NCBI GenBank assembly: GCA_965237565.1
Contig: OZ250145.1
Coordinates: 1,214,568 to 1,278,567, forward strand
Source: Bdellovibrionales bacterium
GTDB taxonomy: Bacteria > Bdellovibrionota > Bdellovibrionia > Bdellovibrionales > UBA1609
Direction: 5' to 3'
DNA length: 64,000 nt
Below, in pieces: positions 4,438-61,083 of the stretch. The translations under genes and the position numbers were made by a program. Each line of letters opens with the position of its first letter. Within the stretch, counting starts at the first letter, position 1. The notes under the pieces are model-generated. The model saw only the letters and a list, made by a program, of their open reading frames with translations. It searched no databases and was not told the DNA's origin.

Positions 4438-5349
4438 ATGATGGATTTTCAGCAGTTGATGACATTTTGTACGGTTGTCTCAGAGGGAAGTATGACAGCG
4501 GCCGCTGCGAAGCTCTCTGTCACTCAGCCAGCAGTGAGCCAACAAATCAGAAATTTGGAAACAGAGCTGGGTACAAAAATTGTCGTAAGAGGAGTGAGAC
4601 ACATTCGCCTCACTGTACAAGGACAACTTCTTTATAACCACGCAAGAAAAATCCTCAATCTCATGCAAAATGTGCGAACTGCTGTACAAACCATGTCGGA
4701 TGATTTGGAAGGAGAGATACAAATTGGAACTCTCAACTCCATCGGCATCAATCTCATCACTCCCATCATTGGAGCCATTTTAAAACCCAGTCAGCAAAAA
4801 CTACACATGGGACTTTCTTATGGTATTGGCTCTGAAATCATAAAAAAAATGCGAGATAAAGAAATCGACATTGCCATTTTACCTGACCTAAAAAGCGAAT
4901 ATGGATTGGAGCTCCCCTACTATGGATCTCAGTTCCTGTTCAAAGACGAATTGCTATTTGTGGGTTCTGGGCAAGCGAGTTCCCTGCCCAAAACAATGTC
5001 CATAAAAGATATGGGGATGCGCCCTATGGTGGGTTTTAAAAATCTCTTTCCTTCTTTTCGAAATTATTTTGACCAACTCAAAACAGAAAATCACATTGGA
5101 ATCAAACCAGTTTTTGAAAGCAATAATGTTGGAACGCTGAAAAGAATGATAGAGGCGTGGATGTGCTGGGGATTCTTACCATCTCACAGTATTCACAAAC
5201 AAATCCGAATGGGACGTCTTTCTGTGATACAAATTGAGGGCCTAAGCTATTCAATGAATATCAATGCCTATTACCGAGTGGATCTACCTGAAAAGAAAAA
5301 AATCATTGATACATTTTTGATGATGCTACAAAAGCAAAATCATTTTTGA
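4438..5349 (+). CDS. LysR family transcriptional regulator
   Basis: N-terminal wHTH (FCTVVSEGSMTAAAAKLSVTQPAVSQQIRNLETELG) and a ~300-aa length with a substrate-binding-like C-terminal part. Confidence 0.9.
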   Translation: MMDFQQLMTFCTVVSEGSMTAAAAKLSVTQPAVSQQIRNLETELGTKIVVRGVRHIRLTVQGQLLYNHARKILNLMQNVRTAVQTMSDDLEGEIQIGTLNSIGINLITPIIGAILKPSQQKLHMGLSYGIGSEIIKKMRDKEIDIAILPDLKSEYGLELPYYGSQFLFKDELLFVGSGQASSLPKTMSIKDMGMRPMVGFKNLFPSFRNYFDQLKTENHIGIKPVFESNNVGTLKRMIEAWMCWGFLPSHSIHKQIRMGRLSVIQIEGLSYSMNINAYYRVDLPEKKKIIDTFLMMLQKQNHF

Positions 5350-5552
5350 TCAGATGATGTAAAATCTTTTTCCTTAGAATCTTTTTCCTTAGAATCTGGT
5401 TCTTTAAAGATTTTTTCTGACTCACTTGCAAGGTCGGGCAAAGACTCTTTATGTTTCTCATACTCTTTATTTTCTATTCTTTGTTGCTGAAAACTCGAAT
5501 CAGCAATTCTTTTATCGAATTTAAACTCTTTAATAATACCATTTAGTTTCAT
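5340..5552 (-). CDS. Small hypothetical acidic/Lys-rich protein (70 aa)
   Basis: Strong SD (AAAGGAGAGATATA) immediately upstream of the ATG on the minus strand. Contains a 15-nt tandem duplication (DSKEKDSKEKD). No homology recognised. Confidence 0.4.
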   Translation of the reverse strand: MKLNGIIKEFKFDKRIADSSFQQQRIENKEYEKHKESLPDLASESEKIFKEPDSKEKDSKEKDFTSSDQK

Positions 5553-5640
5553 TATATCTCTCCTTTTTTACTATACGTTTTGATTTTCTTTTTCCCGCTC
5601 CTCCCGCCTAGCCGAAGGAAAAAAAAACACCTACAAAAAA

Positions 5641-6363
5641 TCACTCATCATCAGACAAAGTCTTGAATCCACGAAGGCGAGCCAAAGAAGAAGCCAGATG
5701 TTTTTGCCAAGTCCCTCTTAATTTAAGAAATAAAAGACCAGAAATCAAGCCCCCTAAATGAGCTAAATTGGCCGTGGTACCACCCAGACCAGAACCCAAA
5801 ACAGTCAATAACTCGACCGCAGCGATGAGAATAATAAAGTGCCTCGCCCGCATGGGAATAAAAAACATAAACAAAACCATGCGCTCGCCAAAAATCAAAC
5901 CATAAGCCAATAAAAGGCCAAATATAGCCCCCGAAGCTCCCACAACCGGAGTGGCAGCAATCAAACTATCCCCTCCAAAAAGAAGGTAAATCTGTATGCA
6001 AATAAAATAGATCAAAGCAGAACCTACACCGCAGACAAAGTAGTAGATCAGAAAAAACTTTTTTCCCCATAATCTTTCTAACTCAGAACCAAACATCCAT
6101 AGGATCAGCATGTTAAATAAAATATGAAAAACACCTGCCCCGTGAAGAAACATATAGGTAAAAAATTGCCAGATAAAAAAACGCGAAGACACCAGCGAGG
6201 GAGTGAAGCCAAAAAACCGATACACAAGCGGGAATTCTAAAAAATATGTTTGAAGGACTAAAACCAAAAAAAACCAGCAAGCAACATTGGCGATGACAAG
6301 AAGTTTGACTGCAGAACTTACTTTAGGGGCAAAAAGCTGAGGACCATAGTAGCCTTGCATCAC
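5641..6363 (-). CDS. Rhomboid family intramembrane serine protease
   Basis: Multi-TM protein with the GASGAIFGLL catalytic-Ser motif and a downstream AHLGG His motif. Confidence 0.85.
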   Translation of the reverse strand: MMQGYYGPQLFAPKVSSAVKLLVIANVACWFFLVLVLQTYFLEFPLVYRFFGFTPSLVSSRFFIWQFFTYMFLHGAGVFHILFNMLILWMFGSELERLWGKKFFLIYYFVCGVGSALIYFICIQIYLLFGGDSLIAATPVVGASGAIFGLLLAYGLIFGERMVLFMFFIPMRARHFIILIAAVELLTVLGSGLGGTTANLAHLGGLISGLLFLKLRGTWQKHLASSLARLRGFKTLSDDE

Positions 6364-22507: not shown

Positions 22508-24295
22508 TTACTCTAGTTCTCTATCTCCAATTTTATTCTGTGTCATCCTGTGAACAAACTCATCAAAATTATTTCGCATTTCCTGCTTTAGCTTTTTCTT
22601 TCCAACACGTCTTTGTTCACTGTTCACGAAAGATCCTAGATCTGTCACATTAGTACTAGATAAGGCTTTAAAATTCCACTGTAAAAGATCCCTCACTCCG
22701 TCTTTTCCAATAGTTCTTTCTATAGATTTTAAAATAGGTCTCAATCGAGACACATCAACGTTCATAAAAGTTGAAAAATCTTGTTTTATTATTTTTTTTA
22801 TTTTTATTGCCCCTTGTTTCCCAAAAAAATTATTCATATAGAAAATAACTTCTTTAAGACTTTTTTCTCTAGCGTAGAGGAAATTATAAATATTCTCTTG
22901 TATTCTTTCCTTAATAAATTCTCTATCGACAAAATTCTCTATCATTCCTACAATCTTTTTAAGCTTATGGATATTATCCTTGGAAAATTTCTGAAATTTT
23001 TGTTCCAAACCTTGTTGCAAAATCACTCCTATACTATCTTCATCAACAAATTCTTTCAAATAAAACACAAATTCTTTCAATTGAACTAATTTGGCTTCAA
23101 CGAAACCTTGAAAATTCACTCGCATTTCTTTCTTAATGGACTCTTCACTCATAAATTGTCTTAAGTAAGATACAACAGTTTCCAAATGATCTACTCTACC
23201 CATAACAAAAACATGAAAATCCTCCTTTATGGCATCACTTACTCTTTCTTTACCAATGAAATTCTGTACATAAGATACAGTTTTACTTAATTCATCGAAT
23301 TCAACGTTTTTAAATTCAGTGAGTTTGTATATTACCAATAATCGCAATTCTTCTTTTCCTATCAAGTCTTCTAAATAGGGTATAAGTTTTTGAAATTCAT
23401 CCATTTTAATTGTAGAAATAATTCGAAAATTTATTATTATTTTGTTCTTGAGCAGCAAGTGATTCACAAATAATTTTAATTGTTCTACAACGGATGAAAG
23501 ACGATTTATACTAGCTATAATGAAATTTATAGGATAGAGTCGTACAATATTTCTCGTTTCCTTCCGACCAATGAATCCTTCTAAATAAGATACAGCTTTT
23601 TTTAACTCACCCAATTTAACTATGCTGAACTCCCGAAAATGATTTTGCATTATCACTTTCAGTCTTTCTGGTTCAATAAATTTTAACAAGTAAGCTGAGA
23701 CTTTTTTAAGCTCATCCAATCTCGCAACAGGAATGAATTGAAGATGATGGTACATGACATTTTTAGTGACCCCTTTCCCAATGTACCCCTCCATAAATTT
23801 TACGACTTTTATTATCTCATTAATGTTCCCTTCATTGAATATTTTTAAAGAAGTCGTTAAATATTTTTGAATTCTCTTCTCTCCTATGTAGAGTTGATAG
23901 AAATTCACTCTTTCGATGAAGGATTGGTGATCTGTAAGCTTTATTTTAGGTATATCTCCAATTCGTTGTAAGCTATCCTGCTTCCCTATTTTTTCTATTA
24001 AAAAATTTAGAAATGTCTTTGCATCTTGATGAGTCCAATCTTTAGTGTATTCTTCTAATCCCCTCTCCCAATCTTTTCCCATCTTTTCAAGCCAATTCTC
24101 TCCATGATATTCTTTTGCAAAATCCACAAACACAGATCGGGCAGTTTTTTCTTCCTTAAATCCGACAGAAAAAGTTTCTTCACAAGATGTGGAAAACCCT
24201 TTTGGAGAGAGCAAGGAAATGAAGACCAAGGAGATGACAAAAGATATGTTTATCGTACGAAGTTTATACATAGACATAATATGACTTTTATACAT
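22508..24295 (-). CDS. Exported tandem-repeat protein, ~35-aa helical repeats with mTERF-like signature (paralog 1, intact)
   Basis: Signal-like N-terminus (INISFVISLVFISLLSP). At least 12 units of 34-36 aa with the pattern ELKKxVSYLxxFIGKE...F..F. The true start may be Met7 or Met9. The mTERF family assignment is inference only. Confidence 0.7.
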   Translation of the reverse strand: MYKSHIMSMYKLRTINISFVISLVFISLLSPKGFSTSCEETFSVGFKEEKTARSVFVDFAKEYHGENWLEKMGKDWERGLEEYTKDWTHQDAKTFLNFLIEKIGKQDSLQRIGDIPKIKLTDHQSFIERVNFYQLYIGEKRIQKYLTTSLKIFNEGNINEIIKVVKFMEGYIGKGVTKNVMYHHLQFIPVARLDELKKVSAYLLKFIEPERLKVIMQNHFREFSIVKLGELKKAVSYLEGFIGRKETRNIVRLYPINFIIASINRLSSVVEQLKLFVNHLLLKNKIIINFRIISTIKMDEFQKLIPYLEDLIGKEELRLLVIYKLTEFKNVEFDELSKTVSYVQNFIGKERVSDAIKEDFHVFVMGRVDHLETVVSYLRQFMSEESIKKEMRVNFQGFVEAKLVQLKEFVFYLKEFVDEDSIGVILQQGLEQKFQKFSKDNIHKLKKIVGMIENFVDREFIKERIQENIYNFLYAREKSLKEVIFYMNNFFGKQGAIKIKKIIKQDFSTFMNVDVSRLRPILKSIERTIGKDGVRDLLQWNFKALSSTNVTDLGSFVNSEQRRVGKKKLKQEMRNNFDEFVHRMTQNKIGDRELE

Positions 24296-24327
24296 GAAAT
24301 TAAAATTTCATAAATTAATTTTACTTA

Positions 24328-24363
24328 TTAATGTAACCTTTACATGTTAATGTAAAATTTACA
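24328..24363. promoter_or_regulatory. Two operator-like palindromes upstream of paralog 1 (ATGTAA-CCT-TTACAT and TGTAAA-A-TTTACA)
   Basis: Perfect palindromes at 24331-24345 and 24351-24363. Each is preceded by TTAATGTAA, a direct repeat 19 nt apart. They lie 36-68 nt upstream of the annotated ATG and are degenerate in the paralog-2 copy. Confidence 0.3.
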
Positions 24364-24630
24364 CGCCGATTATGGATGTTATCATACTTAGCAAAAATCT
24401 TGAACATACTTTTGGAGAATAAATGAAAATAATCAATGAAAAATAAAAAATATATATCTCACGACATGAACCCAATATTTAGTTGTTAGATAGTCATTTA
24501 TGAAATAGCATTTTACCAACTGCTTACATATTTTCCTAAACTAACATCCAATTCACTATGAAATAGGGAAATAACAGATTCATTCTAGTTTAGTATAATC
24601 AAACAAGTTATTTGTTTTTGCACGTCCTTT

Positions 24631-26336
24631 TTACTCTAGTTCTCTATCTCCAATCTCATTCTGTGTCATCCTGTGAACAAGCTTAGCAAAATTATCTCGC
24701 ATTTCCTGCCTTTATCTGCCTCCTGCCAATACAAGCTTCTTCATTCATTATAAAGGATTTTAGCTCCCTCACATTAATACGAGATAAGTGTTTAAGATGT
24801 TGCCACATTATGTACTTCATTTTTTCTTTTCCAACAGTACTTTTTATAAATTGTAAAACAGGTCTCAATCGAAACATATCAACTTTTATGAAGACTGAAA
24901 AATCCTGTTTTATTATTTTTGATATTTTTACTGTTTCTTTTTTCCCAAAAAGATTATTCATATAGGACATAAATGCTTCAAGATTTTCCTCTTTAGCATA
25001 AAGAAAATCATAAATATTATCTTGCATTTTTTCCTTGATAAATTCTCTATCGACAAAATTCTCTGTCATTTTTACAATCCTTTCAAGTTTATTAACACCA
25101 TGAGCAGAAAATTCTTCAAAATTCTTTCAATCGATTTAATTTAAATTCAACAAAACTTTGAAAATTCACCAGCATTTCTTTCTTAATGCTCTCTTCACTC
25201 ATAAATTGTCTTAAGTAAGATACAACAGTTTCCAAATGATCTCTTCTAGCTACAACAAAAGCGTGAAAATCCTTAACTACGACGTGCTTTACTCCTTTTT
25301 CACCAATGAAATTCTCTAAATAAAGTGCGAGCTTCTTGAATTCATCAAATTTGACGTTTTTAAGTGCATTAGTTTTGTATCTCATTAACATTTTGGATTC
25401 TTCTAATCCAATTAAATTATATAGATAATCCATAAGTTTTTTTAATTCGTCAATTTTAATTTCAACAATATTTTGAAACTCTGTCTTAATTTTTTCTTTA
25501 ACCATTTTATGATCCATAAATCGTTCGAACTTATTTGTAACGAATGAAAAATTACGAAAATCAGCTATAATAAACGATACAGGATTATGATATATAATAT
25601 TTTTCGTTACGCTTATTGAGTTTATATATCTTTCTATTGCTGCCATCTCATTGAATCGAGCCATAATGAACTCTCGAAAATTATTTCGCATTATCATTTT
25701 CAGTTTTTCTCGTTCAATAAATCTTAACAAGTAAACTGAGACTTTTTTCAGCTCATCCAATCTCGCAACAGGAATGAATTCAAAATTATAATACATGACA
25801 ATTTGGGTGGCTTCTTTTCCAAGATAGCTTTCTATAAATTTTATGACTTCTGCTATCTTATTAATGTCCCCTTCATTAAATATTTTTAAAGAGGCTGCTA
25901 AATATTTCTGAATTCCGTGTTCACCTATGTAGGATTGGTAGAGTTCTACTCTTTCGATGAAAGATTGGTGATCTGTAAGCTTTATTTTAGGTATATCTCC
26001 AATTCGTTGTAAGCTATCCTGCTTCCCTATTTTTTCTATTAAAAAATTTAGAAATGTCTTTGCATCTTGATGAGTCCAATCTTTAGTGCTTTCTTCTAAG
26101 CCCCTCTCCCAATCTTTCCCCATCTTTTTAAGCCAATTCTCTCCATGATATTCTTTTGCAAAATCCACAAACACAGATTGGGCAGTTTTTTCTTCCTTAG
26201 GTTTGAGAAAAAAAAATTCTTCACAAGAGATGGAAAAACCTTTTGGAGGGATAAATAAACCAAAGAGCAAAAAGACGATAAAAGATATGTTTATCATATG
26301 AGCCTTATACGTAGACATAATGTGACTTTTATACAT
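24631..26336 (-). pseudogene. Paralog 2 of the repeat-protein gene, disrupted by at least two frameshifts and internal deletions
   Basis: Track ORFs 25116..26336 and 24692..25069 are collinear with paralog 1 but lie in different frames. The break at ~25100 coincides with a deletion of about one repeat that is not a multiple of 3. A second shift near 24700-24715 separates ...QIKAGNAR* from an intact-looking tail QEMRDNFAKLVHRMTQNEIGDRELE* ending at 24631. Confidence 0.7.
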
Positions 26337-26455
26337 AGAATTAAAACTTCATAAATTAATTTCACCTATCAATGTAAATTTTATACAATGGTGTAAAATT
26401 TATATGCTGATTATAAATATTATGGTGCTAAAATGATGATTCTAAAATTATAATA

Positions 26456-27190
26456 TTAGGAAAAACTTTTTGCAATGCCTATGACTATATCTTTATAAAA
26501 AATCACAGAACCATTTCCTTTTAAATTTTTTTGAAGTACTTTGAACTCGTAATCATATGCTTCTGAATGATACAGATTCGAAGTGTGATCAAAAACCTTT
26601 TGACCATGATCGTACATCCTTGAACCATGCTTGTACTCTTTTGGAACATGATCGTAGCCCTTCGAACTATGATCATATCCATTTGAACTAATGATTTTCC
26701 AAGAAAAAATAATAATTTGCTTCATATAGGCTTGAATGACAAATTTGTTTAAACTTTTAAAGACAGCTTCTTTTGCTGACCACAAAGTCGCCGGATTGGG
26801 AGCTTGGCTAAGCTCCTCTTCTTGTGAAATGTAGGCAACTGTCTTAGCTTTGATTCGATTTTTTTGTTCTAGATCAAAACTGATGGAAGGCTGGGCTGAT
26901 TCAGAAATAATCATTCCCCCTAAGCCAAAACAATGAGAAAGTGAAAGAGAACGAGAGGGTAAATGAGGAGGCACACCCGGAGTTAATAAAAGTTTTTTTT
27001 GCTCATTTGAAAGATTGGTAACTTTTTTTTGAATCTGGGAAAGCATATTTTTACGCAGTTTTTTTCTCTGCTCCAAGTAAAACTTTTTGTGACCAAAATC
27101 CATAAGGTAACAAGTGAAAGCACAAGATAGTCGCCGGCTATGATTTTCGAGCAAGGATTCAATGGTTCTTAATTCTGAATTTGAAAACAT
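26456..27190 (-). CDS. 4'-phosphopantetheinyl transferase superfamily protein (Sfp/EntD-like) with heptapeptide-repeat insert
   Basis: PPTase-like motifs LSLSHC...ISFDLE and WSAKEAVFKSL. The insert is SSNGYDH SSKGYDH VPKEYKH GSRMYDH GQKVFDH. Confidence 0.6.
   Translation of the reverse strand: MFSNSELRTIESLLENHSRRLSCAFTCYLMDFGHKKFYLEQRKKLRKNMLSQIQKKVTNLSNEQKKLLLTPGVPPHLPSRSLSLSHCFGLGGMIISESAQPSISFDLEQKNRIKAKTVAYISQEEELSQAPNPATLWSAKEAVFKSLNKFVIQAYMKQIIIFSWKIISSNGYDHSSKGYDHVPKEYKHGSRMYDHGQKVFDHTSNLYHSEAYDYEFKVLQKNLKGNGSVIFYKDIVIGIAKSFS
26584..26688 (-). repeat. Five in-frame 21-bp tandem repeats (consensus atgatcrtannncnttngaac on + strand) inside the PPTase-like gene
   Basis: Units at 26584, 26605, 26626, 26647 and 26668, read directly. 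They encode xxxxYDH heptads. Confidence 0.8.
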
Positions 27191-51423: not shown

Positions 51424-52650
51424 ATGAACTTTATTGCTCCTGAAAAACAGTTAAGTCAAATAAAATGTCAAGCCGTTGATTTGGTCTCAGAAGAAGAGTT
51501 GTTAAAAAAACTAAAAAAAAGTTTCCAAACAAAAAAACCCCTGCGGATCAAAGCAGGATTTGATCCCTCCCGTCCAGATTTACATCTAGGACACGCCGTT
51601 TTGCTCAACAAATTGAAATTGTTCCAAGATTTACACCACCAAGTTGTCTTCCTCATCGGAGACTTTACAGCCCAAATCGGCGATCCTTCCGGCATGGACC
51701 AAACTCGCCCCATTTTAAATAAAGAAGAAGTGAAACAAAATTCTAACACCTACTTGAAACAAGTTTTCAAAATTCTAGACAAAAATAAAACGGAAGTGCG
51801 ATTCAACTCTTCTTGGATGGACAAAATATCGCCTGCAGATATGATCCATCTAATCAGCCAATACACTCTTGCTCGCATGTTAGAAAGAGAAGACTTCTCT
51901 AAAAGATTTGCAAACAAAAAATCCATCTGCCTACATGAATTTTTGTACCCTCTTTTGCAAGGCTATGACTCTGTCGTCCTGAAAGCAGACATAGAGCTAG
52001 GGGGAACAGACCAACTGTTCAATCTTTTGGTGGGACGAGAATTGCAAAAAAAATACAAGCAAGAATCTCAATGCATTCTAACTATGCCAGTTTTGGAGGG
52101 CCTAGACGGTGTAAAAAAAATGTCCAAAAGTTATGATAATTTTATTGCGCTAGAAGATAGCCCTAGAGAAATGTTCGGAAAAACAATGAAAATCAGCGAT
52201 AAACTCATGCTTCGCTACTATGAACTGCTCACAGATAAAACAGAAAAACAAATCTCTGAATTAAAACAAAATCTCCAAACGAAAAAAATTCACCCAAAGA
52301 AAATCAAAATGGAATTGGCTAGCTTTTTTGTGGAAAAATTTCACAGCCCCTCTCTAGCAAAAAAAGCAGAAAAAGAATTTCAAAATATCTTCTCTGAAGG
52401 AGGAATTCCCTCGGATATGGAGGAATTTGTTTGCTCTTCATCCAAACCCATATGGATCTGTCGCCTCATTCATGAAGCAGGTCTTTGCTCATCGACCAGC
52501 GAAGCTCGCCGGCTAATCAAAAGCTCTGCCGTCAGTTTGGATGGAAAAAAAATCAAAGATATTGATTCGCAAATTCAATTGAAAGAAAAAGAAAATCCAA
52601 TCCTAAAAGTTGGCAAAAGACGATTTATAAAAATAAAGGTGGTAAAATGA
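51424..52650 (+). CDS. tyrS: Tyrosine--tRNA ligase (type 2, with S4-like C-terminal domain)
   Basis: HIGH-type [13 protein letters not shown] (KKMSKS), and a C-terminal S4-like [16 protein letters not shown]. The start is uncertain (51385, 51391 or 51424). Confidence 0.92.
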
Positions 52651-53255
52651 AAATTACATTCCTCCCGCAAAATATATCAACCGAGATCACATCTGGAAAA
52701 AGTGTGATGGATATTGCTCGTGAAAAGAAACTGCCCGTTAGCTCCTCTTGCAATGGTATGTGTACCTGTGCAGAATGCCGTATTTATGTCGTAAAAGGAG
52801 AAGCTCACATCCTACCCCCCTCGACAAAAGAAATGGAATTGATCGGAGGAGGCTATTATATCGACAATCGCAGGCTCGCTTGCCAACTCTTTTGCTTTGG
52901 AGATGTTACAGTGGATCTGTCTGAACAAGTGGAAAGAGCAAAACAAAAAACAGGCATTACAAAACAATTTTTGAAAAGATTGCAAAAAACAAACCCGCAA
53001 GAGTCTTCTTCAGTGAGTGGAATTTTGATCGAACAAGACCAAGCTATTAAGAATATTAAACCCTCTGAAGTAGAACATTTTGAAAAAAAATTCCAAGATC
53101 TAGACCCTTTTTACCAAGTAAAAAAAGAAAACTTCTTCCAGCAAAAAAGATCATCAGACCAAGAAAAAAAATCATCCAATTTTCGCGATGAACAATGGAA
53201 AAGCCGAAACAAAAAAAGAAGAAATAATAGAAAAAGGAAAAACAAAAAATATTAA
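52647..53255 (+). CDS. Adrenodoxin/putidaredoxin-type [2Fe-2S] ferredoxin domain protein with long polybasic tail
   Basis: C-x5-C-x2-C ([10 protein letters not shown]) followed by RRLACQ. The ~100-aa C-terminal extension ends [18 protein letters not shown] overlap with the tyrS stop. Confidence 0.7.
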
Positions 53256-55003: not shown

Positions 55004-55885
55004 TCACTTGCCGGAAAATAAAAGAGACTTTTGATAAATCTTTTTGATTTCCTCTTGGTTGAAATAGTTTTTGTGTTTCTCATAGCCCTTTAATAGAATT
55101 TGGCACTTCTCTCTAAGCACATGAAGCAATTCTCGCCTTTCATATTCTGCGAGCAGAGGATTTTCCAGATGCTCTGCCAAAGCCCTCACTCTCCATTCAT
55201 CCATCGCTTTGTATTTTTTGGATAGCTGCCCCGAATGGCCTCCATACTTCCTCACCAAGGGACGCTCAACAAAACCAACAAGAGTGCGAGAGGTGATCCG
55301 CAACCACATCTCATAGTCTTCACAAACGGGAAAATCTTCACGAAAAAATCCAACCTGATTCAATAGTTCCCTTTGAACCAGCACGGCAGAAGGGCTGATA
55401 CAACAGAGCCACAAATTATCTACAAAAACACGCCCTCCCCTTTTTCGATGCTTTTTTTTTTGATTCACTTGCTTCCCATCACGAATCCAAATTTCATTCG
55501 TGTGAACCAAAAGATGCTCCGGATGCTCAGCCACCCACCCCATCTGTTGGCCGAGTTTCTCATCCAACCACTCATCATCAGAATCCAAGAAAGCCACCCA
55601 CTTCGCCCGACCCTCTTCCAATCCCAGGTTGCGAGCAAAACTAACCCCTCTGTTCAAAGCCTGATGGATGACCCGCATCTGCCGATCAGGAAATAGCCTT
55701 TGCCACTTTTTTAAAAGAACCCTTGTTTCATCTGTGGAACCATCGTCCACCACCCACAAAGTAAATTTTTTAAACTTCTGTGCAAACACTGAACGAATGG
55801 AACGATCCAAGGTAAAAGCCCGATTGAAAGTAGGAATGATAATATCTATTTCTGAAAGCATATTTGAATTATTTAATTTTTTCAC
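55004..55885 (-). CDS. Glycosyltransferase family 2
   Basis: IIIPTFNR start, VVDDGSTD, and a DSDDEW (DxD) motif. Confidence 0.8.
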   Translation of the reverse strand: MKKLNNSNMLSEIDIIIPTFNRAFTLDRSIRSVFAQKFKKFTLWVVDDGSTDETRVLLKKWQRLFPDRQMRVIHQALNRGVSFARNLGLEEGRAKWVAFLDSDDEWLDEKLGQQMGWVAEHPEHLLVHTNEIWIRDGKQVNQKKKHRKRGGRVFVDNLWLCCISPSAVLVQRELLNQVGFFREDFPVCEDYEMWLRITSRTLVGFVERPLVRKYGGHSGQLSKKYKAMDEWRVRALAEHLENPLLAEYERRELLHVLREKCQILLKGYEKHKNYFNQEEIKKIYQKSLLFSGK

Positions 55886-55997
55886 ACATTTTAACGAAAA
55901 AATGAGTTGATTTTATCCATGGTTTTTGATCTTCTTTTATGAAAAGTCAAGCACTCAAAAGTTTACCAACCCCCTATCTTATTGGAGTATCCCAACC

Positions 55998-56957
55998 ATG
56001 CAACCCTCTACTCTCTTTGAAGGCTCTGAAAAAAAATTAGAAATCATTTTCTCCCCCACTATGGAACCTCTAAGAAATCGCAAACACTCCCTTTGGAAGA
56101 AAATTTGTGAGAAAGCAAATAGCCATATCGTTTCTCGCTTTTCCAGTCGCTTTTGCAATTCATACATCCTGTCAGAATCCAGCCTGTTTGTTTGGGATCA
56201 CCGATTGTTAATGCTCACTTGTGGCCAAACATCTTTGATTCACTCTATTATTGCTCTGCTGAAACATTTCAAAGATTCAGATATTGAATTGCTGTTTTAC
56301 CAACGAAAAAATGAACTCTTTCCACATAATCAAAAAAGTTCCTTCATGGAAGACATTTACAAAATCGAAAAAAAAATGCCAGGGCAAGCGTACCGTTTTG
56401 GACAACCGCATGAGCATCACTTTCAAATATTCCACTCAAAAAGTGACTACCAAGAAAAAAATCAAGACCGAACCATTGAGATACTCATGTATGACTTGGA
56501 TGACAGAATTAAACAATTTTTTTTTGAGGCCGAAGGATCTGCCGAAGTCAGAAAGCGATTCAAGTTGGATCAACTATTTAAAAATACACAAATAGATGAT
56601 CACCACTTTAGCCCGCACGGCTACTCCCTCAACGGACTGAGAGACAAAAAGGAATACTACACCATTCATGCCACTCCCCAAGAACCTGGATTCTATGTCA
56701 GTTTTGAAACAAATATCATCGAAGAACCGCCCAAACAAATTATCGAGAAAATACTCAAGCTATTCAAACCAACTACTTTTGATCTCATCTTGTTCTCCTC
56801 CAATAAAAAAATAGAAAACTTTTCTTTTGATCTTTTTACACAATCAGCCTACTTTACAAAACGCTTGGAATGCGAATACGAAATCCATTTTTATAGTTTT
56901 TTTCAATCCTTTGCGTATCCCCTTCCAGCCTTTCAATTGAAACACAAGGGAGGATGA
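55998..56957 (+). CDS. speD: S-adenosylmethionine decarboxylase proenzyme, eukaryotic-type (class 2)
   Basis: Collinear by hand with human AMD1 over the whole length: FEGSEKKLE, the self-processing site YILSE|SSLFV (E60|S61, Ser codon 56178-56180), LTCGQT, FYQRKN, TIEILMYDLD, PHGYSLNG, YYTIHATPQEPGFYVSFETN and LFKP. Start placed at the ATG at 55998, after GGAG. Confidence 0.85.
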   Translation: MQPSTLFEGSEKKLEIIFSPTMEPLRNRKHSLWKKICEKANSHIVSRFSSRFCNSYILSESSLFVWDHRLLMLTCGQTSLIHSIIALLKHFKDSDIELLFYQRKNELFPHNQKSSFMEDIYKIEKKMPGQAYRFGQPHEHHFQIFHSKSDYQEKNQDRTIEILMYDLDDRIKQFFFEAEGSAEVRKRFKLDQLFKNTQIDDHHFSPHGYSLNGLRDKKEYYTIHATPQEPGFYVSFETNIIEEPPKQIIEKILKLFKPTTFDLILFSSNKKIENFSFDLFTQSAYFTKRLECEYEIHFYSFFQSFAYPLPAFQLKHKGG

Positions 56958-57853
56958 ATATGAGTCTGCTAGATTGGGAAACACAAAAAAGCTCTGGGAT
57001 GGACCTGTGGGTTGAAGAAAGACACAGAAAAGACTACTATGCCACTCGTTTTAAATGCAAAAAAGTACTGTTTTCTGCAAAAACAAACTATCAGCACATC
57101 GATGTGATTGATACGGAAGCCTACGGACATATCTTATTGAATGACGGCATCATACAATTGAGCGAAAAAGATGAGTTTGTTTACCATGAAATGATGGCCC
57201 ATGTCCCTTTATTTACACACCCCAAACCAGAAAATGTATTGATCATCGGTGGAGGAGACGGCGGGGTGGCTCGCGAGGTCCTACGTCATGATAGTGTGAA
57301 ACAATGCACTCTCGTAGATATTGACGAAGTGGTGGTTCAAGTCTCCAAAAAATATTTTCCAAGTATGTCGCCTGTTTTTAACAATCCGAAACTGAAACTG
57401 AAAATTGAAGACGGAGTGCAATTTATAAAAAATACAAATGAAAAATTTGATATTATTTTGGTGGATTCCACAGATCCTATCGGCCCAGCTTCTGCCCTAT
57501 TTGCAAAAAAATTCTACGAAGAAATCTCTTCTACCCTGAACAGTGAAGGGTTGGTCGTTGTTCAGGCGGAATCCTCATTCTTTGAAATCAAAACACAAGC
57601 TCTTATTTTACAATGTTTTCATTCTCTATTTCCGGTCTCTCAACTCTATCATTTCTCCAACATGGTTTACCCAGGAGGACTCTGGTCTTTTGCACTTGGA
57701 TCCAAGCGATTTCATCCTATCAAAGATGTTCAAAAAGAAAAGAACTCCTGCACCGGCTGGGATCTATGCTATTATAACCCAAAGATTCATCAATCCGCCT
57801 TCTCACAACCTGAATTTGTAAAAAAAGAATTGGGGCAATGGGTCAAAGGATGA
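56954..57853 (+). CDS. speE: Spermidine synthase
   Basis: IIGGGDGGVAREV, VDIDE and DSTDPIGPA motifs. ATGA overlap with the speD stop. Confidence 0.9.
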   Translation: MNMSLLDWETQKSSGMDLWVEERHRKDYYATRFKCKKVLFSAKTNYQHIDVIDTEAYGHILLNDGIIQLSEKDEFVYHEMMAHVPLFTHPKPENVLIIGGGDGGVAREVLRHDSVKQCTLVDIDEVVVQVSKKYFPSMSPVFNNPKLKLKIEDGVQFIKNTNEKFDIILVDSTDPIGPASALFAKKFYEEISSTLNSEGLVVVQAESSFFEIKTQALILQCFHSLFPVSQLYHFSNMVYPGGLWSFALGSKRFHPIKDVQKEKNSCTGWDLCYYNPKIHQSAFSQPEFVKKELGQWVKG

Positions 57854-58182: not shown

Positions 58183-61083
58183 ATGCGCTTAGCATTCTAT
58201 TTCACTTTCCTTCTCTTTTTATCTTATTCATTTTTTTCCTCGGCAGAGAGTAAAAATTTTTGCAAGGAGATTTTCAGTCATCATCCCTCCAATCTCAAAT
58301 ATTCCAAACTTTATTATGAAGAACAAGCCCTCAAAAGAGACCAAAGGAACGGGAAAAATAAACACCCAGAATATACACATGTTGAAAGAGATTATCAGAG
58401 GGTAAAACTATGGGATGAAAAAGATGAGCGATTCATTGATTCTCGGATTTTGAATTTTTTGCTCCCAGATAATACCTTTGTTATCAACCATCAACTCGAT
58501 CGCCCAGGAAACCAAACCACCGTTAAGCTAGGAGAACCAGGTTCAGCCGTGATCGTAAGAGCCAATTACGAATATGGAGGCTACAATCTTGCGACTAATG
58601 TTACCTTCAGCAATAGAGCCCTCGCGAAAAACATGGAGGAAACAGAACAAAAATGGCTGGTGGGCAGAGATGCAAAGGCGGCGATTTTATACCTGCATGG
58701 CGGTGGAACAAAATCAACGGGATCTCATGTCGCTAATGCCATGATTAGTCATTTTAAAAATTACGATATTGATGTCTTAGCCCCAGATCTGCCTTGGCAT
58801 GCCAATGGCCACAGGGAGTTTATTCCTTCTTTTGAAACTGAGATAAATATTCTGAGCGCTTTTAGTAAAAAATATATCCCTCCCAACGTGCCTTTGTTTG
58901 TCTGGGGACATAGCTGGGGGGCGGTTTTTGCGGAAAAACTCATGACAATGACAGATAGAGAGAATTTTTCTTTTCACCCCAGTTTAAAAGGAGTGATCAT
59001 TCTTTCACCCCCTGTAGATGCAGCTCCAGGAAAACCCATAAATGAAAAATTTAACGCATACTATAAAAGGATAGATCACGCTAAACAAAATCTGACTCAC
59101 GAATTTGCAGACAGCGAGATGTATCTCTCGAAAGATATGGTGGCTGCCGGAAAAATTAGTCCGCTGGGTTCACTCTATTCCATGCACACCATGTTGCAAA
59201 TGAACCAAATAATCCCTACACATAAAGGAAGCAAATACATACCAGCCCTAATGGTGGTTGGAGAATCAGATCCCCTTGTCTATGTGGGATTCGGTGACTT
59301 GTTCAAAAAATATTATGACAAACTTGAAAATGTGGATGTTCACTACTTGCGTAAATTGCCTCTCCTGATCAATGGTGTCAACGAAGACACGAAGAGGGTC
59401 GGTCACATGCTGGGTGACTACATAGACCCAAACTCCAGGGAGCCCATTCATTCTCATCTGGGACAGAAGTTTATGTCTCGTGTAATGAATGTTCCGATAG
59501 GAAAAGTAAATATACCACTCATTCACCCTCTAGTCAGGATTACGCAACTCCATGCAAATGATCTGGCATTTAGAGAATTCATCAATTACCACATTCACAT
59601 CTCTGTAAACACAATTTCTACCTATAAACAATTATTTGCACAAAATTTAACGCAAATACGGCAGAATATACAACACATTCTCAATCGTGCACTTTCTCGC
59701 AAAATGCAACTCCACGAACTATTGTCCCAACTCACTGAAATTAAAACTGAACAAGAGCTAGACTCCATCACAGAGAAATTGGATCTATTATTGAAAACAA
59801 ATGAATTGCTATCTCATAAAGATTTGCGAAAAGATCTTTTTGAGTTGCAAAACGATTTATCTGTGGAGAAAATGTCCTTTGTAGCACAGAAACTTTTAAA
59901 CAAATACGAAAAAATATTGCGTAAGACGCCAAAAAGAATTGAGAAAATTGTCAACTCCATACTGAAAGCTGGTAGCATATTAAACGCAATCAAAATACTG
60001 CATAATCAGGCTGTGCCTTACGAGGTAAAAAACCAAATCAAAAAATCTCTCCTTCAATATTTCAAGTTCCAAGAGATCAGCGAGGGAACCTACGCTCCCA
60101 GATTAAAAGATCTATTAGAAGAATTTCACTTGGAACAACCAGAACAAATAAAAATGATCAAACGTCAACTCAATGAAATTAGATCAATTGTTCACTCCAG
60201 AAAAGAATTAAAAAGAAAAATAAGGGCATTGTCGAAGGAACAAAAAACTTTGTCAGCGGAATACAACAATCTTGTAGAATTGGTACGAAAAAAGATCAGA
60301 CTAATTAAACTAGTCATAGAAAAAGCAAGCTCGGAACCTCCTAAATCCCTTCTCCAAAGCTACGAAAATAGCAAAAAAGAATTGGAATCATTACAGAATC
60401 TCTCAGACAGTATGACCAATGTGATCGAAAAGTTAAGTTTCAACTTCATTGACAAAAAAACCAATGCAAGCATAGAAGAAATAAATAATAGCGTAAATCA
60501 AAAACGAGAGAAAATGGACCAGTTCAGTGAATTGTACAGCCAGTACATGAAGAATAGAACAGCACTAAGAGCACAATTGCTAAGAGTCGTGGAGAAAGGA
60601 GGCATGGGGGATGAGTCCCGAGAAGCTGTTGTTGCCATTTACGGGGATAAATCAAACGGCTACTATCCGACGAAAGGAACAAAAAGTATTTATTTGGATT
60701 TACAAAAAAAGATGACAAAACTGGCAGAAAAGGAAGATATGTTCTACAAAGTAAAAATCAAACATGGCCACTTAATCTTAGAATACCAAGATCTTTATAT
60801 GAAATTGTTTAAGCAATTGACTCCAAAAAATGATAACAAGTACACCAAAGCCATGACAATCGCCAACCAAGTTGTTTCCGTTAAGTTTCAAAATTTAAAG
60901 GAAATTCTTAGCCTCAAAAATCCAAATATTTGGGCTACAATAGAGAAGCGACCACAACATGAACAAAGGGAATACATTTTGTCTTACATTCAGACACACG
61001 AAAAATTGTTTCAAGAAGTCATCAATCTATGGAACCGGCTCAACTCTAGCCTACCACCGCTGTTGCCTCATGAAGCAATGTAG
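58183..61083 (+). CDS. Secreted alpha/beta-hydrolase (GHSWG nucleophile elbow) fused to a ~550-aa helical/coiled-coil region
   Basis: Signal peptide (FYFTFLLFLSYSFFSSAES). HGGG oxyanion-like YLHGGG, VWGHSWGAVFAE, candidate Asp (GESDPLV) and His (RVGHMLGD). The C-terminal two thirds are Lys/Glu/Leu-rich. Confidence 0.6.
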   Translation: MRLAFYFTFLLFLSYSFFSSAESKNFCKEIFSHHPSNLKYSKLYYEEQALKRDQRNGKNKHPEYTHVERDYQRVKLWDEKDERFIDSRILNFLLPDNTFVINHQLDRPGNQTTVKLGEPGSAVIVRANYEYGGYNLATNVTFSNRALAKNMEETEQKWLVGRDAKAAILYLHGGGTKSTGSHVANAMISHFKNYDIDVLAPDLPWHANGHREFIPSFETEINILSAFSKKYIPPNVPLFVWGHSWGAVFAEKLMTMTDRENFSFHPSLKGVIILSPPVDAAPGKPINEKFNAYYKRIDHAKQNLTHEFADSEMYLSKDMVAAGKISPLGSLYSMHTMLQMNQIIPTHKGSKYIPALMVVGESDPLVYVGFGDLFKKYYDKLENVDVHYLRKLPLLINGVNEDTKRVGHMLGDYIDPNSREPIHSHLGQKFMSRVMNVPIGKVNIPLIHPLVRITQLHANDLAFREFINYHIHISVNTISTYKQLFAQNLTQIRQNIQHILNRALSRKMQLHELLSQLTEIKTEQELDSITEKLDLLLKTNELLSHKDLRKDLFELQNDLSVEKMSFVAQKLLNKYEKILRKTPKRIEKIVNSILKAGSILNAIKILHNQAVPYEVKNQIKKSLLQYFKFQEISEGTYAPRLKDLLEEFHLEQPEQIKMIKRQLNEIRSIVHSRKELKRKIRALSKEQKTLSAEYNNLVELVRKKIRLIKLVIEKASSEPPKSLLQSYENSKKELESLQNLSDSMTNVIEKLSFNFIDKKTNASIEEINNSVNQKREKMDQFSELYSQYMKNRTALRAQLLRVVEKGGMGDESREAVVAIYGDKSNGYYPTKGTKSIYLDLQKKMTKLAEKEDMFYKVKIKHGHLILEYQDLYMKLFKQLTPKNDNKYTKAMTIANQVVSVKFQNLKEILSLKNPNIWATIEKRPQHEQREYILSYIQTHEKLFQEVINLWNRLNSSLPPLLPHEAM

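Follow-up and report, generated by a model that had tools for sequence, protein, structure and literature searches.

A 64,000-nucleotide stretch of a Bdellovibrionales genome (contig OZ250145.1, positions 1,214,568 to 1,278,567; hereafter the window) contains a gene for a class 2, or eukaryote-type, S-adenosylmethionine decarboxylase (AdoMetDC) followed directly by speE, a gene for an aminopropyltransferase of the spermidine synthase type. We conclude that these two genes of a Bdellovibrionales-like bacterium very probably form a polyamine operon, in which the AdoMetDC proenzyme would cleave itself and make decarboxylated S-adenosylmethionine (dcAdoMet) for the adjacent SpeE protein. Judging from its sequence, the class 2 AdoMetDC gene is almost certainly functional and part of a conserved bacterial amd-speE operon. 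The features of the locus are:

55984-55987, + strand: GGAG, a possible ribosome-binding site 10 nt 5' of the AdoMetDC ATG, proposed from inspection of the sequence

55998-56957, + strand: class 2 (eukaryote-type) AdoMetDC proenzyme gene with an ATG start, 319 aa, identified by PF01536, alignment to the human proenzyme and an AlphaFold2 model

56175-56180, + strand: codons for Glu60-Ser61, the predicted autoprocessing site, aligned to human Glu67-Ser68

56220-56222, + strand: codon for Cys75, aligned to human Cys82, the catalytic proton donor

56607-56609, + strand: codon for Phe204, aligned to human Phe223, which stacks on adenine

56625-56669, + strand: segment from Ser210 (human Ser229) to His224 (human His243), assigned by alignment to processing and catalysis

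56948-56953, + strand: GGGAGG, a Shine-Dalgarno-like motif for speE inside the end of the AdoMetDC gene, seen on inspection of the sequence

56954-57853 (or 56960-57853), + strand: speE, a polyamine aminopropyltransferase of the spermidine synthase type, 299 aa (297 aa from 56960)

Searching the 319-aa protein with hmmscan assigned it to one Pfam family, PF01536 (SAM_decarbox; E = 1.3e-65, 222.2 bits, cut-off 22.2), with residues 6-276 matched to model positions 3-306 of 343. The class 1 family PF02675 (AdoMet_dc) gave no match in the Pfam scan at E<=0.01. An earlier note, made from the DNA sequence of the window, had described the product as a class 2 enzyme collinear with human AdoMetDC and had proposed the comparison of these two families, which came out in favor of class 2. 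Collinearity was also borne out: in a phmmer search of PDB sequences, residues 2-306 aligned to residues 2-326 of the human proenzyme (1msv, 1jl0) with an E value of 1.3e-36, far beyond chance. The next matches were the enzymes of T. brucei (E = 3e-20) and potato (E = 1.7e-14). All of the motifs quoted in the note are present in the protein, namely FEGSEKKLE, YILSESSLFV, LTCGQT, FYQRKN, TIEILMYDLD, YYTIHATPQEPGFYVSFETN, LFKP and FSPHGYS. A longer reading from an in-frame TTG at 55926 was rejected; homologues start 4-5 residues ahead of FEGSEKK. An AlphaFold2 model built on an alignment of 27 sequences had a pLDDT of 89.9 and a pTM of 0.89, and Foldseek matched it to the human proenzyme 1msv with a TM of 0.85 across 317 columns. 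The model has the single-chain, two-lobed alpha-beta-beta-alpha sandwich that is equivalent to two fused class 1b units.

We counted residue conservation over 264 bacterial homologues aligned with MAFFT, using human numbering from the AdoMetDC proenzyme. Residues L58-S59-E60-S61-S62 of the window protein align with human L65-S69, the LSE/SS cleavage site. The equivalents of human E67, S68, C82, F223, S229 and H243 are kept in all 264 homologues. Phe7, Glu8, Glu11 and Glu15 are unchanged and carry the same numbers in the human and window proteins; E8, E11 and F7 are kept in more than 95% of the homologues (F7 in 251 of them). The one difference that the note had drawn attention to, human FNPCGYS against FSPHGYS here (Cys226 to His207), is uninformative, as this position varies freely in the bacterial clade (V, C, A, Q, S and others).

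Conservation of these residues suggests how the enzyme would work by analogy with its human counterpart. The proenzyme would cleave itself between Glu60 and Ser61 by non-hydrolytic serinolysis aided by Ser210 and His224, yielding a beta chain of ~7 kDa (residues 1-60) and an alpha chain of ~30 kDa (residues 61-319), with the N-terminal Ser61 converted to the pyruvoyl cofactor. The pyruvoyl group is predicted to form a Schiff base with S-adenosylmethionine, the adenine of which would be stacked between Phe7 and Phe204. Loss of CO2 followed by reprotonation by Cys75 would then allow dcAdoMet to be released. SpeE, probably translated from the same mRNA by way of an ATGA overlap or a 2-nt gap, would move the aminopropyl group to putrescine (or agmatine) to form spermidine (or N1-aminopropylagmatine).

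The speE product contains PF17284 and PF01564 and scored 316.4 bits on TIGR00417 (cut-off 249.55) and 338 bits on NF002010 (cut-off 260). These equivalog scores, together with an N-terminal tetramerisation domain and the dcAdoMet motif GGG(D/E)G(G/A), identify it as a spermidine synthase family member. Its best PDB match is SpeE from B. subtilis (1iy9, E = 9e-78). The dcAdoMet motif reads IIGGGDGGV, and VDID was assigned to motif 3 by eye from the alignment. GGGDGG with VDID is the pattern of spermidine and N1-aminopropylagmatine synthases, and by this pattern the Asp in motif 2 and VDID argue against a spermine or thermospermine synthase (PMC11107197). By these data the acceptor may be either putrescine or agmatine. 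A model for fusions to a major facilitator superfamily (MFS) protein, NF037959, scored 36 bits on the speE product, under its cut-off of 40.

The stop codon of the AdoMetDC gene (TGA, 56955-56957) overlaps an ATG at 56954-56956, giving a 4-nt ATGA overlap. The GGGAGG motif has a spacing of 0 nt to this ATG and of 6 nt to a second in-frame ATG at 56960, so the start of speE may lie 2 nt past the AdoMetDC stop. The earlier note had proposed a tight operon joined by an ATGA overlap. The tight operon stands with either start, the genes being 4 nt overlapping or 2 nt apart. The ATG needed for the overlap is present, but the true start may be at 56960, in which case there is a 2-nt gap and no overlap. 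An NTGA overlap, with the start codon at -4, was found at 23 of 65 junctions in relatives, usually with a Shine-Dalgarno-like motif 5-10 nt 5'. Tight co-translation of AdoMetDC and speE is plausible.

This gene pair is widespread. A word-indexed protein search returned 823 matches, and the best 120 of these were all 39-64% identical to the window AdoMetDC; the few among these 120 that carry a source name bear the label Bdellovibrionales or S-adenosylmethionine decarboxylase. When representatives of 50%-identity clusters were searched exhaustively with a profile, 2612 clusters passed E<=1e-3 and 887, eukaryotes included, passed E<=1e-30; the best 150 all scored above 260 bits. A scan of genome contigs with the single protein found no relatives, whereas a scan based on an alignment did find them: 413 genomes, taken as one per GTDB species, encode a relative. 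We determined taxonomy and gene neighborhoods for the best 80 of these 413 genomes. Most belong to Bdellovibrionota (Bdellovibrionales, Pseudobdellovibrionaceae, Bacteriovoracaceae, Halobacteriovorax and Oligoflexales); the others include a few metagenome-assembled genomes (MAGs) labelled Myxococcales or Elusimicrobia and the cultured genera Shewanella, Ferrimonas and Pokkaliibacter. These numbers bear out the suggestion in the note of an under-appreciated bacterial lineage. In 64 of the 80 loci speE is directly downstream, and the identities of the two genes co-vary (r = 0.95), indicating that AdoMetDC and speE are inherited as a unit.

We also found class 2 AdoMetDC fused to spermidine synthase (SpdSyn) in a single polypeptide with PF01536, PF17284 and PF01564. 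Two independent clusters of such fusions, both metagenomic, encode proteins of 620 aa (P0190) and 633 aa (P0212), and the first of these is present in two independent sources, the Logan and ENA assemblies. Fusions of class 1b AdoMetDC with an aminopropyltransferase have already been published; no mention of a class 2 AdoMetDC-SpdSyn fusion was found in the literature examined. The caution in the note that substrate specificity cannot be assumed was reasonable, but it is largely answered by these fusions and by the conserved linkage to speE.

Some relatives have no adjacent speE, including two Bdellovibrionales MAGs (L015 and L017) and Ferrimonas (L056), and some genomes have a stand-alone copy. 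In L015, a 1.4-Mb chromosome with the class 2 AdoMetDC gene at 4995-5918, and in L017 there is no speE within 5 kb; in L015 the gene is followed by rpiB and glyA. In these two genomes either speE is elsewhere or the copies serve another acceptor. In Shewanella fodinae KCTC 22506 (L070, 2135-5924) the order of genes is speE, a speA-type PLP-dependent arginine decarboxylase gene, class 2 AdoMetDC and a pyridoxamine-phosphate oxidase gene.

Several observations weigh against a role of the window protein as a spermidine-pathway AdoMetDC. Its score on the NCBIfam equivalog model TIGR00535 was 156.8 bits, under the cut-off of 233.15, and the most similar other sequence is 64% identical to it. At the position of human Lys80, a residue conserved in human, yeast and potato, the window protein has Leu73 and 263 of the 264 bacterial sequences have Ile, Leu or Val. 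The position of human Glu247, which is said to bind the ribose hydroxyls, is occupied by Gln in 171 of the bacterial sequences, Glu in 79 and Asp in 7; the window protein has Gln228 with Glu229 beside it. A scan for promoters and terminators gave no signal above shuffled expectation, and no source of putrescine or agmatine is visible within the window. In addition, class 1 SpeD homologues have repeatedly been neofunctionalised into arginine or ornithine decarboxylases (PMC10407285), so the substrate cannot be read from the family alone. For its part, TIGR00535 appears to be tuned to eukaryotic sequences, and the shortfall has probably led to inconsistent public annotation of the bacterial clade, where one relative is labelled 'hypothetical protein' (P0011) and another 'adenosylmethionine decarboxylase' (P0066).

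Some of these points can be read together as marks of a neofunctionalised homologue that keeps the pyruvoyl chemistry and acts on another substrate, such as L-arginine or L-ornithine, or that makes dcAdoMet for a non-polyamine use. The change of SpeD to arginine or ornithine decarboxylase is widespread (PMC10407285), and the Gln at the human ribose ligand, the replaced Lys80, the low TIGR00535 score and the relatives L015, L017 and L056 without adjacent speE would all fit such a protein. Even so, we consider this explanation improbable. Published neofunctionalised speD genes are marked by a missing speE or by a second speD, whereas here speE adjoins the gene, as it does in most of the relatives, with divergence that co-varies. 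The AdoMetDC-SpdSyn fusions and retention of the adenine-stacking residues, Phe7 in 251 and Phe204 in 264 of the 264 homologues, also speak against it, and the speE product is a canonical soluble enzyme above the TIGR00417 cut-off and not an MFS fusion. Even less probable is an inactive or regulatory paralogue with the AdoMetDC fold and no catalysis, like the trypanosomatid prozyme. Foldseek does match the model to T. brucei prozyme chains (TM 0.67-0.71), but identity to these chains is 15-16%, compared to 29-30% for the active human enzyme. The processing Ser, Cys75, His224, Ser210, Glu8 and Glu11 are all kept, and no second AdoMetDC gene was seen beside the window AdoMetDC.

The closest characterized relatives are all eukaryotic, which raises the question of whether an error in assembly or binning joined a piece of a eukaryotic gene to a bacterial contig. 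The flanking genes are bacterial and encode tyrosyl-tRNA synthetase, RNase Y, glycine dehydrogenase (GcvP), an acyl-CoA dehydrogenase, apolipoprotein N-acyltransferase (Lnt), an iron-sulfur cluster scaffold-like protein and a GT2 glycosyltransferase. The G+C content is 38% at the AdoMetDC-speE stretch and 36-42% in its neighbors, and it stays even, at about 38-42%, around the locus. These bacterial flanks and the uniform G+C exclude contamination by eukaryotic DNA. The gene has no introns, has Shine-Dalgarno-like motifs and lies within a few nucleotides of a bacterial-type speE; dozens of assemblies made independently of one another have this gene pair too, among them closed chromosomes of 1.3-2.3 Mb; and the bacterial sequences form a clade of their own (see below). 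An artefact of this kind is effectively refuted. As the earlier note proposed, the class 2 AdoMetDC belongs to a bacterium, and the chromosome that carries its gene is genuinely bacterial.

The human residues that respond to putrescine are partly retained in the window protein. Human Phe111, Asp174, Thr176 and Glu178 of the putrescine pocket correspond to Phe100, Asp157, Thr159 and Glu161, and Glu256 of the putrescine network corresponds to Glu237. Thus, E15, D157, T159, E161 and E237 are present, but the human-type activation network is incomplete, with Leu73 at the Lys80 position and Lys13 at the Leu13 position. This network defines only the putrescine-activated enzymes and not the whole AdoMetDC family; plant enzymes are also without it. 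Lys80 is part of a buried charge network that passes on putrescine activation. At the Leu13 position, Lys is found in 254 and Arg in 6 of the 264 bacterial sequences. The changes L13K, K80I/L and E247Q are systematic in the clade, which suggests that putrescine regulation is altered, and the bacterial enzymes may therefore be regulated differently from the human enzyme. It is possible, though not likely, that this clade-wide swap of charge, with Lys13 and a hydrophobic residue at position 80, supplies the buried acidic pocket with a cation of the protein's own and so makes these enzymes putrescine-independent.

Such a route would be unlike that of plants. The putrescine-independent potato AdoMetDC (1MHM) also has a basic residue at the human Leu13 position, Arg18, where 260 of the 264 bacterial sequences have Lys or Arg, and Arg18 reportedly fills the putrescine site. 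However, Lys80 is present in the potato enzyme and Phe111 and Asp174 are replaced there; the window protein retains the latter two, as Phe100 and Asp157. The MAFFT placement of potato at human Asp174 seems to be one residue off the published structural alignment, and we draw no conclusion from it. Similarity of the window protein to the potato enzyme is also much lower than to human AdoMetDC, with 19-20% identity.

Human AdoMetDC (AMD1; 1JEN, 1MSV, 1JL0, 1I7B) shares with the window protein its fold, its LSE/SS site, the equivalents of Cys82, Ser229, His243, Glu8, Glu11, Phe7 and Phe223, and the pocket residues Glu15, Asp174, Glu178, Glu256 and Thr176. The window protein is 15 residues shorter, with trimmed loops, and differs at Leu13 (Lys13), Lys80 (Leu73), Glu247 (Gln228, with Glu229 adjacent) and Cys226 (His207). 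Its gene is in an operon with speE, and the regulation by upstream open reading frames and mRNA known from eukaryotes does not apply. The class 1b SpeD of T. maritima (1TLU, 1VR7; PF02675) has the same pyruvoyl chemistry and, like the window protein, is of a type commonly partnered with speE. A class 1b protomer has the fold of one class 2 lobe (Foldseek E ~4e-4 over 114 columns) and gives no sequence-profile match. It is ~120-130 aa long and makes the two-lobed unit by dimerising, whereas the window protein is a single chain of 319 aa with both lobes. Two SpeD-like lobes in one bacterial polypeptide are also found in the SpeD-SpeDC fusions of Lentisphaerota, Omnitrophota and Desulfobacterales (PMC10407285). 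In SpeD-SpeDC of V. vadensis the C-terminal lobe is degraded and non-processing, and a proposed model of how class 2 arose is based on this protein (PMC10407285). By sequence these fusions are recognizably class 1b. The window protein, in contrast, belongs without ambiguity to PF01536 and groups with the class 2 enzymes of eukaryotes.

To place the bacterial sequences, we constructed a neighbor-joining tree from Scoredist distances with 200 bootstraps, using 39 bacterial and 15 eukaryotic sequences. The eukaryotes, drawn from the best 120 profile matches, were vertebrates, Saccharomyces and plants. All of the bacterial sequences in the tree fall into a single clade (bootstrap support 99.5%), and their attachment among the three eukaryotic groups had support of 32%, 56% and 12%. 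Mean distances were 1.15 within bacteria, 1.30-1.44 between eukaryotic kingdoms and 1.57-1.72 between bacteria and eukaryotes. The single clade and these distances point to a bacterial clade that is old and diverse and does not nest near the animal, fungal or plant sequences. A neighbor-joining tree with this sampling cannot place the root, detect nesting in unsampled protists or decide the direction of transfer. It is possible, though we think it unlikely, that bacterial class 2 AdoMetDC is an ancient lineage spanning Bdellovibrionota with a vertically inherited amd-speE operon, and not a minor, recent eukaryotic offshoot. Internal divergence of the bacterial sequences approaches that between animals, fungi and plants, and on this view the clade attaches outside all three. 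If this idea were true, transfer might date from a very early time or might have gone from bacteria into the stem of the eukaryotes, which bears on where the class 2 fusion arose.

The rest of the window adds a few observations. A search of Rfam gave no match to a riboswitch or leader in 55800-56100, and its only match in the whole window was one tRNA-Met. Other open reading frames (ORFs) of interest are:

52647-53255, + strand: ORF of 202 aa with a Cys-rich N-terminal part like a 2Fe-2S ferredoxin by eye and a strongly basic tail rich in Lys, Arg and Asn; it overlaps the tyrS stop by 4 nt

58183-61083, + strand, just 3' of speE: ORF of 966 aa with an N-terminal alpha/beta-hydrolase domain (Hydrolase_4, residues 163-368); the C-terminal ~550 residues are rich in Lys and Glu, have no Pfam match and are coiled-coil-like by eye

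22508-24295, 25116-26336 and 26456-27190, - strand: ORFs of 595, 406 and 244 aa, none of which matched a Pfam family

The last three lie in a stretch of low G+C content (22508-27190; 29-33% compared to ~40% elsewhere) that adjoins a pair of ABC-2 transporter genes. This stretch may be a horizontally acquired island or may encode lineage-specific surface proteins.

The earlier note had presented the gene as unexpected, on the view that established classification confines class 2 enzymes to eukaryotes. That view does not hold. PMC10407285 (Li et al. JBC 2023), which cites Li, Kurihara, Kim, Liang & Michael (Biochem J 2019; 476:2579; hereafter Li et al. 2019), already reports class 2 AdoMetDC genes in some bacteria, with a eukaryote as the apparent donor. 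As far as that account goes, the bacterial enzymes of Li et al. 2019 and the window protein are alike in being single-chain, eukaryote-type PF01536 proteins in bacterial genomes. A full-text literature search for AdoMetDC with Bdellovibrio, outside which Li et al. 2019 falls, found nothing relevant. With relatives in 413 species genomes and the kind described for bacteria in general, such genes are both common and already described, an outcome that the note had itself named as a refutation, so the claim of novelty fails: bacterial class 2 AdoMetDC is common in Bdellovibrionota and has been described since 2019. The bacterial enzymes described then are said to be functional and 'phylogenetically limited', and some of them reportedly serve an MFS-SpdSyn-like fusion in cells without spermidine.

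What results is a correct annotation and not a discovery, namely the assignment of a spermidine operon in a small-genome lineage of Bdellovibrionales in which public annotation is inconsistent. What remains of interest is how large and how deep the bacterial clade is and that its putrescine-network substitutions are systematic. The family, with its 413 species genomes, is far larger than the limited set that is said to have been known in 2019, and a well-sampled phylogeny could revisit the direction and timing of transfer between domains. The clade has systematic changes in residues through which putrescine activates the human enzyme, and this makes it a natural experiment for that allosteric mechanism.

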